A stretch of DNA of 64,000 nucleotides from Escherichia phage Turkey3: sequence record PQ471515.1; one strand, written 5' to 3'. Positions 16,398 to 37,031 of this stretch are shown one piece after another. Under the pieces are notes generated by a model. It saw nothing but the letters and a program-made list of their open reading frames with translations. It ran no database searches and was not told the origin of the DNA. A program made the translations under genes and the position numbers. Each line of letters starts with the position of its first letter. Positions within the stretch are counted from its first letter, which is position 1.

Positions 16398-16621
16398 TTA
16401 CTGCCACTGTATATCAAGATATTAATGAAGAATTTAATTCTAAAATTGCATTTTTATCCTTTCCCGTATTGCCAGCTATTGGTGCTACGTTGAATCTTAC
16501 AATCTGTGGCTTTGAAAAATACTATGAAGTACTAGATATTGAGTACTGTGCAGATGTTTATTCATGCAACAGTGAGATTGCTATTCCGGTGCAAATCGAC
16601 ATTATAGTAAAAGAGGTTTGA
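16394..16621 (+). CDS. hypothetical protein
   Basis: 75 aa; ATGA overlap. Confidence 0.5.
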   Translation: MITATVYQDINEEFNSKIAFLSFPVLPAIGATLNLTICGFEKYYEVLDIEYCADVYSCNSEIAIPVQIDIIVKEV

Positions 16622-17082
16622 TTATGTTTAAACACTTTCTAGTAATCACTGCTGTTGTATTCAGTACTTCCTGCTTTGTAGCACCAGTACATGCGGAAGA
16701 CCAGCGTCAAACAATCAAGACGATTGGAACAGGGAAAGCCCAACCAAAACGTACTGCTGAAGAATACATGCCTGAGATGCGTGAACGTTACCGCCAGCAA
16801 TACCGTGAAAAACATGCTAATGATAAGCCTATCAAAAAGCATAAATGGAATGTAGTCAAATCGCCATCGTTTTGTGCTGGGTATGCTAAGGTTAAGGATG
16901 AACAGCACAACAAGCAGTACTATAAAGATATGTACACATTCTATGATTCGAGGATCTCGGATGATGACATGATGGCTGCTAAGGTTGATAAAGAAGAATT
17001 TCTTCAGGGTTATGACATGACCGATGATGACAAGATCATGGAATGTGTTGAAGTATATGAAAAATACAGAGGTTTTGAATGA
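16618..17082 (+). CDS. secreted hypothetical protein
   Basis: 154 aa; signal-peptide-like N-terminus ending VHA-ED. Confidence 0.65.
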   Translation: MIMFKHFLVITAVVFSTSCFVAPVHAEDQRQTIKTIGTGKAQPKRTAEEYMPEMRERYRQQYREKHANDKPIKKHKWNVVKSPSFCAGYAKVKDEQHNKQYYKDMYTFYDSRISDDDMMAAKVDKEEFLQGYDMTDDDKIMECVEVYEKYRGFE

Positions 17083-17522
17083 CACTTTTGCTGATTCTAG
17101 GTTTATTAGTGTCATATTTCATTTTTCTTAACATCTTCTCTGATGCATCACATTTTGCATATGCTTCAGCTATTGCAAAACACGAAGGGATAAAGAAGTA
17201 TATTCCTGCATTGTTATTCTCATATATGTACCATCCAAGGTACTTTACACTAGGTGTGTTTGACAAGTATGTATACGACGAAAAAGCACTCAATGAAATT
17301 GAATACTTTGTAAGAACTCATGCTAATAACAATCCAAAATCATTAATTAACTTTACTGATAATCGTAAACGTGTTAGTATTAGAACTGACTTGTATCCTA
17401 CCAGTCACTTTCATCTAGGCGATTGTAGTGTGTACAGGGTTAGATACGAAAACTTACTGTTACCACCATCACATATAAGATACATAGAAAAATACTTGTT
17501 GAAATGTGTTGACTCCAAATAG
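17079..17522 (+). CDS. hypothetical membrane-anchored protein
   Basis: 147 aa; N-terminal hydrophobic helix. Confidence 0.6.
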   Translation: MTLLLILGLLVSYFIFLNIFSDASHFAYASAIAKHEGIKKYIPALLFSYMYHPRYFTLGVFDKYVYDEKALNEIEYFVRTHANNNPKSLINFTDNRKRVSIRTDLYPTSHFHLGDCSVYRVRYENLLLPPSHIRYIEKYLLKCVDSK

Positions 17523-17575
17523 TAAATGGCAGTATAATAGCTTCGTACCGCAATAACTGACAAGAGGATTTAACG

Positions 17576-18034
17576 ATGGACGTATTAGCTACTCAATTCA
17601 AACGCAACGCAGAAGAACGTGAAGGTTACCTAAGTATCAGTGAAGTGGTTGAAGATGGATTCAAGCAGTACATTTTCAACAGTGCAATTAAACTGAAGCC
17701 AACAAAAGATTCACCGGACCGCAGCTTCACCAAGTGGATTGCATACTGGGAAGAGTCACCAATTGCAATCGAAATGACTGTCATCACTACAGTACTGGAA
17801 ACTGGTTACATCAAAGCAATTGTAGTTGATAAGAAAGTTCGTACTCTTGATGAAATCGGGACATACCCAGCACGTAACTCTAAAGTATTTGGGTGTTTAG
17901 TTGATGGTAAGTTTATGATTGAAAAAGATGCTAAGAACTATGTAATTGATAAACTACAAACCAGTGCTACTAAACAGGAAGTCGTAGACCAGAACGCAGT
18001 GGATGCTATTAAAAAGGCATGGGGTCTGAAATAA
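17576..18034 (+). CDS. hypothetical protein
   Basis: 152 aa; AAGAGGA RBS. Confidence 0.65.
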   Translation: MDVLATQFKRNAEEREGYLSISEVVEDGFKQYIFNSAIKLKPTKDSPDRSFTKWIAYWEESPIAIEMTVITTVLETGYIKAIVVDKKVRTLDEIGTYPARNSKVFGCLVDGKFMIEKDAKNYVIDKLQTSATKQEVVDQNAVDAIKKAWGLK

Positions 18035-18456
18035 TGTTCACACTTAGCAATGCAAAGTATCTATTTCTTATTGCTATTATTGGTTGGGTGATGGCTCCAG
18101 TGCTTAATGCACTGGGGTTTCCAGACGGACATAAACTTGTAAATGTTTCAGGTGTAATCCAGGGCATTTCATGGTATTCATTGATTATATTTTCTATATG
18201 TATTCATACATTTGCACGTGATCACCGCCGTCTGCTTTTTGTTAAAGTATTCGGTACTAAGAGATATAGTTTTGTGTTTACATTTATTTTAATACCATGT
18301 ATTATCTATGCTTTTGTATTTGATTACTATACTTATCTGTGGGTGTGTGGTTCTATGTTTGTTATGTTGGAATATACAAGAACTGTTCAAAACTCATATG
18401 CTGATGAGTATTATGATCTTGAAGTTAAACGAAAATTAACGGAGCTAAACAAATGA
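18034..18456 (+). CDS. hypothetical polytopic membrane protein
   Basis: Trimmed to ATG overlapping upstream stop (TAATG); several hydrophobic segments. Confidence 0.6.
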   Translation: MFTLSNAKYLFLIAIIGWVMAPVLNALGFPDGHKLVNVSGVIQGISWYSLIIFSICIHTFARDHRRLLFVKVFGTKRYSFVFTFILIPCIIYAFVFDYYTYLWVCGSMFVMLEYTRTVQNSYADEYYDLEVKRKLTELNK

Positions 18457-18878
18457 GGGGATACAATAAGATTTGTATTTTTGTATTTTTAGTTTGTGCA
18501 ATCAATACATTTGGATATTACTGTACTGAAAACAACATTTCATATGGTTTAAATCCTTTGTGGTTTACAATTGCCAATGTAGCACAAATTGGTATTGCTG
18601 TTATGTCTGCACTTATGTTCTGTCCAATTGTAACTATGGATACTGATCATGAAAGGCTTGGATTTATCCGTGATACTGGAGACGAACCTTACAGTAGATT
18701 GATTGTGTTGTATCCATTTATTGTTATTTTAGGTACTAACATCCAACTTGGGTCTTTATCTAATAGTGTTACTTCAGCAGCCATTACAGTCTTTGCATTC
18801 ACATTTTTTATGGTACACAAATCAGTACTCAAATGGCACATCACCAAAATGGCAGAGAAAGGTACGGAAAACAGTTGA
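18453..18878 (+). CDS. hypothetical polytopic membrane protein
   Basis: 141 aa; ATGA overlap. Confidence 0.6.
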   Translation: MRGYNKICIFVFLVCAINTFGYYCTENNISYGLNPLWFTIANVAQIGIAVMSALMFCPIVTMDTDHERLGFIRDTGDEPYSRLIVLYPFIVILGTNIQLGSLSNSVTSAAITVFAFTFFMVHKSVLKWHITKMAEKGTENS

Positions 18879-18937
18879 CGTGAGTTATTGAGTCATATAT
18901 AATTATTACATCAAAACTGGGAAATGGTAAGGAACTT

Positions 18938-19189
18938 ATGAACATCGATAAGGTCAAAGAACTTAGTGAAGCACTAATTAAGAACGAAGAAGCTTGTGAA
19001 GAACTTCGCAGTACTATCAAAGTTGAGTACGCACGTCTTCAAGCTATGCTTCAGGAATCCGAATGGGTTGTAACTAAATCTATCGAAGCAATCTATAAGG
19101 ATATCGAATCCCTTTTCAACAAGAAAAGTAAGATTGAATCTGATTCATATAACAAACGTAAAGAGTTATCTACTGCACTTGGTATCTAA
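18938..19189 (+). CDS. hypothetical protein
   Basis: 83 aa; RBS present. Confidence 0.6.
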   Translation: MNIDKVKELSEALIKNEEACEELRSTIKVEYARLQAMLQESEWVVTKSIEAIYKDIESLFNKKSKIESDSYNKRKELSTALGI

Positions 19190-19263
19190 AAGTATTTGAC
19201 TTAACCAATAACATGGAGTACAATGTGCTCCTAATTTAATTATCAGCTAAAAAGGAAAACATT

Positions 19264-35867: not shown

Positions 35868-35877
35868 ACATTTAAAA

Positions 35878-35902
35878 GGTTGACTTCGGTCAACCTTTTT
35901 TT
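35878..35902 (+). terminator. terminator-promoter fusion hairpin
   Basis: GGTTGAC-ttcg-GTCAACC plus T7. Confidence 0.7.
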
Positions 35903-35938
35903 GTAAATATTGTAGAGGGTTTTATAAGAGGTAATGCA

Positions 35939-36190
35939 ATGTTTAAATATGTTTTATTTTCACTTGTATTGTTTACTGATATAGTTTATAGTACTGAATA
36001 CCAGTGCTCCATTGCTAGACAGGAGTTTAGAAACGGTGAGTTCTATACCAAGTCTTACACTAGAGGATTGGTACATGACAATAATAAAACTATAGGGTTC
36101 AATGCATTTGATAACAAAGATCGATATACGTCTGGAATACTATCTGAACGTAAGTCGGATATACTAGGTATCGAGCGTGAATTCCGGTGA
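35939..36190 (+). CDS. secreted hypothetical protein
   Basis: 83 aa; hydrophobic N-terminus. Confidence 0.5.
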   Translation: MFKYVLFSLVLFTDIVYSTEYQCSIARQEFRNGEFYTKSYTRGLVHDNNKTIGFNAFDNKDRYTSGILSERKSDILGIEREFR

Positions 36191-36551
36191 CACGGTTGCA
36201 ATGTGTAATGATATTGAGAGTACTAAGAAAGTATATACTAATGGTGAAAATACTTTTAGATTCCACAATCTTACTACCAATGAAAGTTTATACTTCTACA
36301 ACTGTAAAGAGTTCATTAAACCTGTGGATAACTCATGTGATATGCCGGAGCCAAAAACTGCTGTATGTGAGGAACCACAATCTAAAGCTGACAAAGATTC
36401 AAAAGATAAGAAAGACAAAGCTGACAAATCGGATAAAAAAGAAAACAAAAAGAAAGCTAAAGATGATAAAGATAAAAAGTCCCCTAAGCCAAATCCATTT
36501 GAAAAGCCAAAGAATGAAAAGCCAAAACCAGACATGACATGTAAAATATAA
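36177..36551 (+). CDS. Lys/Asp-rich low-complexity protein
   Basis: 124 aa; C-terminal half is a DK-rich repeat. Confidence 0.5.
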   Translation: MNSGDTVAMCNDIESTKKVYTNGENTFRFHNLTTNESLYFYNCKEFIKPVDNSCDMPEPKTAVCEEPQSKADKDSKDKKDKADKSDKKENKKKAKDDKDKKSPKPNPFEKPKNEKPKPDMTCKI

Positions 36552-36558
36552 AAGAAAA

Positions 36559-36591
36559 GGGTTGACTTCGGTCGGCCCTTTTTGCTATAAT
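36559..36591 (+). terminator. terminator-promoter fusion hairpin
   Basis: GGGTTGAC-ttcg-GTCGGCCC plus T5, then TATAAT. Confidence 0.7.
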
Positions 36592-36617
36592 CATTTTATC
36601 AACTACTGGAGGCAAAC

Positions 36618-37031
36618 ATGTTAAAAGTTATTTTCCGTTCTATCAGTTCATTACTTCTTATGATTAGTTCAGTTTGTTATGCAAATGAAGTATCTGATTT
36701 ATTTGAGAAGAATTACCCAACTGCACAAGAGATGGGTGTTTTAAAATGCAAGCTAACTTCGTACAACATCATCGGCAGTAAACTTGTACTGGAACATGAA
36801 CGTAGTACACCAATCCCTCTAGTAGAAGAAGGTAGTACCTTTAGCTTCAAGTACGGGGTGAACGTAACATCTGGTGTAATGAACAATGTTGATGCAGAGA
36901 CTGGTTCAACATGGAGTACTAGTGGCAAAGATGTGTTTCATCGTATGCGTGAAAATGGTAAACTAAAGTACGTATATGAAAGTTCATTCATGAAACGTGT
37001 ATTCATTATAAAAAATTGTGTACCAGCATAA
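36618..37031 (+). CDS. secreted hypothetical protein
   Basis: 137 aa; signal-peptide-like N-terminus ending CYA. Confidence 0.6.
   Translation: MLKVIFRSISSLLLMISSVCYANEVSDLFEKNYPTAQEMGVLKCKLTSYNIIGSKLVLEHERSTPIPLVEEGSTFSFKYGVNVTSGVMNNVDAETGSTWSTSGKDVFHRMRENGKLKYVYESSFMKRVFIIKNCVPA

Follow-up and report, generated by a model that had tools for sequence, protein, structure and literature searches.

We describe here an island of small genes encoding predicted exported proteins, located between positions 16618 and 37031 (about 20 kb) of a 64,000-nucleotide stretch of the genome of Escherichia phage Turkey3 (PQ471515.1), hereafter the window, which has a G+C content of about 35%. The window corresponds to about 285.8-349.8 kb of Escherichia phage vB_Ec-M-J (OQ718158, 378.6 kb, genus Asteriusvirus), to which the interval is 99.4% identical; identity with 121Q and PBECO4 is about 86% over the same region, which is part of a jumbo coliphage genome of about 380 kb. 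The 121Q/RaK2 group of jumbo phages includes candidates for therapeutic use, and more than 80% of the genes of these phages are without an assigned function. In public records, nearly all genes of the interval are reported as 'hypothetical protein', the exceptions being a sigma factor, an HNH endonuclease, one virion structural protein, a 'Cor superinfection exclusion protein' (the gene at 24613) and two genes labelled 'immunity to superinfection' (31693, so labelled in OQ718158, and 33718). A literature search found no paper on exported early proteins of Asteriusvirus or Alcyoneusvirus. The genes, promoters and terminators of the island given below all lie on the plus strand.

Starts of open reading frames (ORFs) were chosen by Shine-Dalgarno support, and export calls were made by an explicit heuristic of our own, based on n-region charge, hydrophobic core, the -3/-1 rule, the lipobox and later transmembrane (TM) segments, together with conservation. 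Sec-dependent export with cleavage by signal peptidase I was called for a short basic n-region, an h-region of about 7-15 residues and small residues at -3/-1, without later TM segments; lipoproteins were called when the motif [LVI][ASTVI][GAS]C closed the N-terminal hydrophobic region. Nine ORFs are canonical by this heuristic: each has an n-region that is short or basic, then a hydrophobic core 8-15 residues long, and finally either a small-x-small cleavage site or a lipobox. Seven are of the signal peptidase I type (^ marks the cleavage site): 16624-17082 (152 residues; signal of about 24 residues, VHA^ED, two mature Cys, signal kept in 121Q and JNE01; phrog_36332, function unassigned), for which ATG 16624 is a likelier start than TTG 16618; 28626-28991 (121 residues; FSTA^VP), whose ATG is internal to a longer ORF opening at GTG 28596; 29382-29732 (116 residues; MSYA^EP); 31398-31622 (74 residues; VVCA^KP, Cys8 and Cys52 of the mature form); 33978-34274 (98 residues; PVLA^TP); 35939-36190 (83 residues; IVYS^TE, a single mature Cys); and 36618-37031 (137 residues; VCYA^NE, invariant Cys22 and Cys112 of the mature form). 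The other two are lipoproteins, 24613-24864 (83 residues; LLTA^CD) and 25226-25501 (91 residues; FLTA^CN, four further Cys). The two L-T-A-C lipoboxes noticed in the preliminary description of this DNA are real, and JNE01 keeps them as LLSA^C and SLTG^C.

Four weaker candidates were also found: a probable secreted protein of 69 residues at 22102-22311, conserved to RaK2, and the product of 25870, both with a short uncharged N-terminal hydrophobic stretch and two conserved Cys, and two proteins with an anchor-like N-terminus, at 17079-17522 (147 residues) and 23346-23528 (60 residues). The preliminary description had counted at least ten ORFs with signal-peptide-like sequences: all nine that it named are canonical, by heuristic and by conservation, while a total of ten is reached only with the help of these weaker candidates.

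Of 12 known controls, eight (OmpA, PhoA, MalE, Bla, DsbA, LamB, Lpp and Pal) were recovered by the heuristic, which placed their cleavage sites to within some 2 residues, and three (LacZ, RecA and TolR) were rejected; the LepB anchor was wrongly called a signal peptide, so that discrimination between signal peptides and anchors is imperfect. Strict calls were obtained for 10 out of 49 ORFs of the interval (one being a spurious off-frame ORF), while the other 81 ORFs of the window yielded none (Fisher P=3e-5), and neither did 33 antisense shadow ORFs. The same pipeline was run on the 630 ORFs of the nearest complete genome, OQ718158: the interval, whose share is 5.7% by length and 7.8% by number of ORFs, contains 9 of the 25 raw export calls (P=7e-5) and 9 of the 14 curated canonical exported proteins (P=1.5e-7). 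Export signals are therefore clustered beyond chance. The canonical exported proteins found elsewhere in the genome are a secreted protein encoded in the terminal repeat, a pair of small lipoproteins from neighbouring genes at about 92.6 kb, an o-spanin and an endolysin with a signal-anchor.

Export is independently supported by conservation and by cysteine content. The orthologues in 121Q, JNE01 and Klebsiella phage RaK2 retain both the signal peptide and its cleavage motif, even though the signal sequence has changed and identity of the mature proteins goes down to about 40%: the sites read MSYA^EP, LSYA^EP, QAHA^EP and ISARA^E for 29382, and VCYA^NE, VASA^AT and NVYA^AD for 36618. The gene found in JNE01 at the position of 31398 is beyond BLAST detection, yet features a signal peptide and N-proximal and C-terminal Cys. 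Exactly 2 or 4 Cys are present in eight of the nine mature exported proteins, whereas the share is 26% among 53 small proteins of the window that are not exported (P=1.6e-4), and the cysteines of the exported proteins are conserved in orthologues; disulfide-bonded periplasmic proteins would be expected to look like this.

Between the genes of the exported proteins lie those of at least seven small multi-TM proteins: two adjoining 3-TM proteins, weak paralogues of each other (18019-18456 and 18453-18878), a 2-TM protein conserved to RaK2 (27920-28162, 80 residues), a protein with 2-3 TM and a basic C-terminus (28221-28547, 108 residues), one with 3-4 TM and an aromatic-rich basic C-terminus (29002-29385, 127 residues), and two 3-TM proteins, at 31693-31929 (78 residues, absent from 121Q) and 33718-33981 (87 residues, absent from 121Q and JNE01). 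The genes 28626, 29382 and 33978, whose products form the family A described below, are each preceded by one such gene, with ATGA stop/start overlaps at 29382 and 33978. The block 28221, 28626, 29002 and 29382, in which membrane and family A proteins alternate, is conserved in 121Q, JNE01 and RaK2. In contrast, the pair 33718-33978 is missing from 121Q, and JNE01 has the family A gene alone, flanked by its own terminator and a perfect promoter; since this third pair is missing or reduced among relatives, the cassettes behave as accessory, moron-like units. The possibility that 28221 and 29002 are themselves paralogues, as expected for a duplicated two-gene module, was rejected, BLAST and hhalign both being negative.

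After removal of the signal peptides, 28626 matches both 29382 (E 1e-5) and 33978 (E 4e-3): the three proteins, with mature forms of about 80-100 residues, are paralogues, and the family A profile picks out these three genes and no other in the genome. When 1.84 billion protein representatives were scanned exhaustively with HMMER, only 18 proteins were detected. All seven small matches inspected have a signal peptide and N-proximal and C-terminal Cys, both cysteines being invariant in 28626 as well, while the remaining matches are a few giant repeat proteins, aligned over a short stretch. Only four positions are invariant in the family, C8, Y34, G43 and C94. AlphaFold2 modelling of mature 29382, from a 22-sequence alignment, produced eight beta-strands with a predicted local distance difference test score (pLDDT) of 87.3 and a predicted template-modelling score of 0.78, C8 falling in strand 1 (residues 6-10) and C94 in strand 8 (residues 90-96). 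The modelled protein is an eight-stranded antiparallel beta-barrel, and the same fold is modelled or inferred for 28626 and 33978; in each predicted barrel a putative disulfide probably joins the first and the last strand. A conserved block, ...E-S/H-x-I/V-G-N/D..., is placed by the model at the strand 4-5 hairpin and may be regarded only as a candidate inhibitory loop. According to a Foldseek search of BFVD, a viral structure library, orthologues and the 28626-type paralogue have this fold too, as do more distant phage proteins, among which is one annotated as a lipoprotein. Family A has no Pfam match at E<=1 and no PDB sequence match. The secreted proteins 36618, 31398 and 35939 were considered as further members and rejected, hhalign probabilities being below 1%: what they have in common with the family is only the signal peptide and the terminal Cys pair.

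Near-consensus sigma-70 promoters are markedly enriched, and on one strand only. Sites matching at least 11 of 12 consensus positions number 14 on the coding strand, with no counterpart on the opposite strand, whereas 200 dinucleotide shuffles gave 0.94±1.0; four of the sites are perfect (12/12), against 0.045 expected. Enrichment is confined to this near-consensus class: at the loose threshold of the scanning tool, promoter-like sites do not exceed the shuffles (91 vs 88±8). Ten of the 14 sites are intergenic, 27-170 nt upstream of a start codon, and the other four lie inside upstream genes. An 11/12 promoter at 24183-24211 precedes the gene run 24305-24613-24861-25226; a perfect one at 28146-28173 heads the four-gene block, which is closed by an intrinsic-terminator-like hairpin at 29920-29943, holding in its stem the -35 hexamer of the next promoter; an 11/12 promoter at 33519-33548 heads the 33718-33978 cassette, closed by a terminator-like hairpin at 34295-34316; a further 11/12 site, at 36562-36591, lies 27 nt upstream of 36618. 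The promoter-genes-terminator layout is clear for two units, 28146-29943 and 33519-34316. Because near-consensus sigma-70 promoters are present, and because PA5oct, a distant relative, relies on host RNA polymerase (PMC7318152), early transcription of the island by the host enzyme is supported, but not proved.

Terminator hairpins of the type ..GGTTGACTTCGGTCAACC.., with a TTGAC -35 hexamer in the stem, were observed at 29920-29954, 34295-34327 and 21441-21466, as well as at 20106-20221 of sequence L003. At 29920, at 34295 and upstream of the 33978 orthologue of JNE01, a -10 hexamer follows the hairpin at promoter spacing; given the -35 hexamer in the stem, each of these elements would therefore terminate one early unit and start the next.

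The lipoprotein 24613 belongs to phrog_902 (E 5e-13), a family of 571 phage records that includes Felixounavirus, Vequintavirinae, Erwinia jumbo phages, one T4-like Acinetobacter phage and Vibrio Demerecviridae, whose genes are always found amid early or replication genes and never with an assigned function. Across nine diverse members the lipobox Cys, two further Cys, a Pro and a Gly-Lys pair are invariant. The match of 24613 to the Cor family (phrog_1119; E 9.4e-4, 20.6 bits) covers residues 1-49 out of 83, mostly signal peptide and lipobox, and there is a weak match to the TrbK entry-exclusion lipoprotein (14 bits). The +2 residue is Asp in 24613, as in 121Q and JNE01, and Asn in 25226. By the E. 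coli +2 rule (Lol avoidance), Asp at this position causes retention in the inner membrane, which is the location predicted for 24613. An AlphaFold model of mature 24613, built with nine close homologues, was too poor for fold comparison (pLDDT 56). When a profile was built from nine members of the family, no PDB chain was detected with it at E<=0.1, although a structure of T5 Llp has been reported (PMC9586334). A fusion-alignment query, intended to deepen both families at once, gave family A sequences alone and added nothing for the lipoproteins.

In phage Acj61 a member of the 24613 family lies directly upstream of an annotated spackle gene. A general link of the family to spackle in T4-type phages was rejected, Acj61 being the sole case and T4 being without a member. 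A role of 24613 and 25226 as o-spanins was similarly rejected: the recognisable lysis genes (annotated Rz-like spanins, endolysin/lysozyme) lie at 109.9-120.0 kb of OQ718158, about 190 kb from the island, and an o-spanin was found separately in the genome scan. The genes upstream of 24613 and 25226 encode proteins without a TM segment.

None of the ten exported proteins searched matches a Pfam model, and in PHROG they fall into small families of unassigned function; Spackle, specifically, is matched by none of them in either Pfam or PHROG. Among the membrane proteins, 31693 scores 15.7 bits on the Pfam model Imm_superinfect (PF14373), the cutoff of which is 27.9, while 33718, 28221, 29002 and 27920 do not match this model, and 31693 and 33718 have no PHROG match. 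The public 'Cor' and 'Imm' labels are unsupported at family thresholds, because the Cor match of 24613 is limited to the signal and lipobox region, 31693 is below the cutoff and 33718 has no match.

According to the preliminary description, these would be periplasmic early proteins modifying the envelope, for example by superinfection exclusion or receptor masking. This interpretation is supported in part; receptor masking is weakened by Asp at +2 and by the sub-threshold Cor match. We propose that the island is made of small genes transcribed early by the host RNA polymerase, the products of which would be sent to the envelope via the Sec pathway: seven secreted periplasmic proteins, two lipoproteins and at least seven small inner-membrane proteins. 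As their most likely role, they would change or shield the envelope once infection has begun, so that a further attack is resisted, in the way of T4 Imm and Spackle; such an exclusion or protection mechanism is the best-supported reading, with a probability somewhat short of even. The family A barrels might bind and block a periplasmic peptidoglycan hydrolase, most obviously the gp5-like tail lysozyme that a newly arriving phage brings along, and the small membrane protein encoded just upstream of each might act during DNA entry or tether the barrel to the membrane. The annotation of vB_Ec-M-J includes a gp5-type baseplate hub and tail lysozyme, and a 96-kDa lysozyme-family protein is contained in the virions of phAPEC6, a close relative (PMC7247149, Table 1). 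Lysozyme inhibition specifically is nonetheless put forward with considerable doubt. In its full form, the proposal that family A is a class of PliC/MliC-type barrel inhibitors, directed against the tail lysozyme of incoming jumbo phages or competitors and carried by modular early cassettes, in which promoter and terminator enclose the genes of a small membrane protein and a barrel and which duplicate, diverge, come and go between strains, is to be taken as unlikely. Of the elements of this picture, the export signals with their conservation, the clustering, the promoter enrichment, the paralogy, the barrel fold and the absence from the virion proteome of a close relative are shown, whereas early timing, disulfide, target and any exclusion phenotype are inferred.

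Several observations weigh against this proposal. No family of known function is matched above threshold in Pfam, PHROG, NCBIfam or PADLOC scans, and early timing is suggested by promoter consensus only. The scan of 1.84 billion proteins found only phage-type relatives of family A and no bacterial MliC/PliC relative. The best PDB match of the 29382 model by Foldseek is the lipocalin-like Tp0751 (E 7e-3, template-modelling score 0.56), and a match to PliC was not reproduced by this program, in which PliC lies outside the top 50; small eight-stranded barrels are, moreover, widespread and serve many functions. A membrane partner need not be present, as indicated by the solitary 33978 orthologue of JNE01, and the partners have no detectable relationship to one another, though the barrels are paralogous. 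Finally, adjacency of the 24613 family to spackle is the single case mentioned above.

Other explanations may be considered for the same set of genes. Envelope protection might be unrelated to other phages, the proteins acting as inhibitors of host autolysins or lytic transglycosylases, of lysozyme of the animal host or of toxins by which competitor bacteria degrade peptidoglycan, or else as lipocalin-like ligand binders that would change envelope physiology in the course of infection. This is suggested by the lipocalin and type VI secretion system immunity proteins found among the fold neighbours. We regard this explanation as unlikely, since no sequence link was found to autolysin-, lysozyme- or toxin-inhibitor families, and since presence and absence of the genes differ between near-identical phages, which fits phage-phage conflict better than housekeeping. 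A different function, control of lysis timing, would have the multi-TM proteins work as holins or antiholins and the periplasmic proteins in the manner of T4 RI, as sensors or relays of periplasmic signals, delaying lysis in the long jumbo-phage cycle. The membrane partners are indeed holin-sized (78-127 residues), with 2-4 TM and basic C-terminal tails, and are paired with periplasmic proteins, in some cases by stop/start overlaps; the endolysin, having an N-terminal signal-anchor, points in turn to lysis control at the membrane. Yet the lysis genes are about 190 kb away, the strong sigma-70 promoters imply early expression, unusual for holins, and no holin or antiholin family is matched, which makes such a function quite improbable.

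Strict receptor masking would involve the lipoproteins only: 24613 and 25226 would bind an outer-membrane receptor, in the manner of T5 Llp and phi80/T1 Cor, stopping adsorption or DNA ejection, or inactivation of progeny on debris. Both are small early lipoproteins with internal disulfide-capable Cys pairs, 24613 carries the public Cor label, and there are the weak Cor (E 9e-4) and TrbK (14 bits) matches. These matches are, however, restricted to signal peptide and lipobox and below threshold, Asp at +2 in 24613 predicts an inner-membrane location and no PDB sequence is matched, so that masking of a receptor appears very unlikely. Least credible of all is that the hydrophobic N-termini are chance products of an AT-rich genome, where ORFs are rich in Phe, Ile and Leu, or uncleaved anchors such as that of LepB, miscalled by the heuristic, or that they belong to virion or assembly components, as might be thought from the 'structural protein' label given in one record to a 29382 orthologue and from the genuine virion proteins encoded nearby by 33125 and 34356. 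Chance is contradicted by the lack of calls among 33 antisense and 81 other window ORFs, by cleavage motifs conserved while signal sequences diverge and by the enrichment in Cys pairs. As for the virion, the phAPEC6 proteome (62 proteins) contains the orthologues of 33125 and 34356, but none of the exported proteins or of their partners.

Some features of the island and of its surroundings deserve mention. The virion genes just cited, at 33125-33508 and 34356-35867, whose phAPEC6 orthologues were found by mass spectrometry, lie inside an otherwise early island, and their products share an N-terminal motif, Y-[LV]-[DN]-S-L-G-L-L. Close behind the secreted protein 35939, an ORF without signal peptide (36201-36551) has Cys at residue 2, more cysteines and a long Lys/Asp-rich tail; this two-ORF arrangement is conserved in 121Q. 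Immediately outside the interval, a large expansion of small membrane proteins is formed by tandem arrays (3 and 7 copies, at 37328-38363 and 46622-49061) of 3-TM proteins of about 104-123 residues with basic C-termini, ending in several copies in R-[ND]-K-[IM]-P-E/N; BLAST connects copies within and between the arrays, which belong to phrog_19285, of unassigned function. Farther on, at 49098-63351 on the minus strand, about ten paralogues of 245-461 residues (pairwise identity 24-36%) are arrayed in tandem; they are probably the counterparts of the 'DNA condensation proteins' (about 41 kDa) detected in virions of phAPEC6 and of the genes labelled 'regulator of chromosome condensation' in OQ718158. 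On the other side of the island, seven tRNA genes (Ser-tga, Ser-gct, Ser-act, Met, Asn and two Thr-tgt) are found on the plus strand at 4716-9180, among small early ORFs, and five short paralogous ORFs of 54-59 residues, starting with MTHEEWM/MTHKEWL, at 2679-2858, 3408-3578 and 4913-5399, three of them in direct tandem.

Some of the exported products encoded elsewhere in OQ718158 also deserve mention. A small secreted protein (6067-6366, signal AVNA^SL), located inside the 21.5-kb direct terminal repeat, has one N-proximal Cys and one near the C-terminus, the same layout as in the island, and is not detected by the family A profile. At 92564-92980 two adjacent tiny lipoprotein-like ORFs (59 and 77 residues; VLS^C and VTG^C) are annotated as hypothetical. 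The annotated endolysin (119079-120005, 308 residues) has a basic and then hydrophobic N-terminus (MKKAKKALKTKIAVGVLVSSALFAAIG...), which suggests a signal-anchored (SAR-type) or a secreted enzyme.

Exclusion factors encoded by early phage genes, be they periplasmic, lipoprotein or membrane proteins, are already known, T4 Imm and Sp, T5 Llp and Cor being examples; the exported-protein island is a solid and testable lead rather than a surprise. What is new is that about 60% of the canonical exported proteins of a jumbo phage are found in one early island, that this contains a lineage-restricted, triplicated barrel family that resembles PliC/MliC in architecture and is encoded beside membrane proteins, and that support is lacking for 'Cor' and 'Imm' as now used in public records. 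One genome site concentrates envelope-directed early proteins, and a series of 'hypothetical proteins' is turned into a short list of testable cassettes, to which the 24613 lipoprotein family, by virtue of its 571 phage records, adds a further target for characterisation. If the barrels do inhibit tail lysozymes, exclusion by lysozyme inhibition would have arisen twice in phages, from unrelated folds, and would offer a handle on cross-exclusion among phages in cocktails; family A would be a structurally independent, convergent counterpart of T4 Imm and Spackle, and the first viral beta-type lysozyme inhibitor serving superinfection exclusion.

Comparison with known systems helps in placing the island. 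With T4 Spackle (gp61.3) and Imm it shares small, putatively early proteins, one exported with a cleaved signal and a disulfide (both predicted for the island) and one located in the inner membrane; the phage also carries a gp5-type tail lysozyme, a possible target. Membrane and periplasmic genes adjoin in the Turkey3 island, whereas imm and spackle are not arranged adjacently on the T4 map. Spackle, an early periplasmic inhibitor of the gp5 lysozyme, is an alpha-helical bundle, contrasted by its authors with the beta-type bacterial inhibitors (PMC7677548); family A is predicted to be all-beta, and no sequence similarity between the two was found.

The lipoproteins 24613 and 25226 resemble the FhuA blockers, T5 Llp and phi80/T1/N15 Cor, in their small size (about 68-72 residues in mature form), disulfide-capable Cys and location in an early region. 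Resemblance of 24613 to Cor is, in contrast, limited to the signal peptide, its Asp at +2 predicts an inner rather than an outer membrane location, and its family, phrog_902, is spread over phages with different receptors.

PliC/MliC proteins (COG3895, PF09864), which inhibit C-type lysozyme and are either periplasmic or bound to the membrane, are defined as exported proteins of about 90 residues, folded as an eight-stranded barrel with a conserved disulfide (PMC2267010), and have fold relatives in Brucella PhiA and Neisseria ACP. PhiA can inhibit a secretion-system autolysin (PMC8334348), and the PliC fold is thus not restricted to animal lysozymes. Family A is like these proteins in export, size of about 90 residues and predicted eight-stranded barrel. 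In contrast, it has no sequence-profile relationship to them, the MliC Pfam model matching none of the 18 family A members at E<=10. Since the architecture agrees and the sequence profile does not, family A is not filed under PliC/MliC: it is PliC/MliC-like in architecture and not a member of that family, being encoded by phages, in three paralogues, each gene beside that of a small membrane protein.

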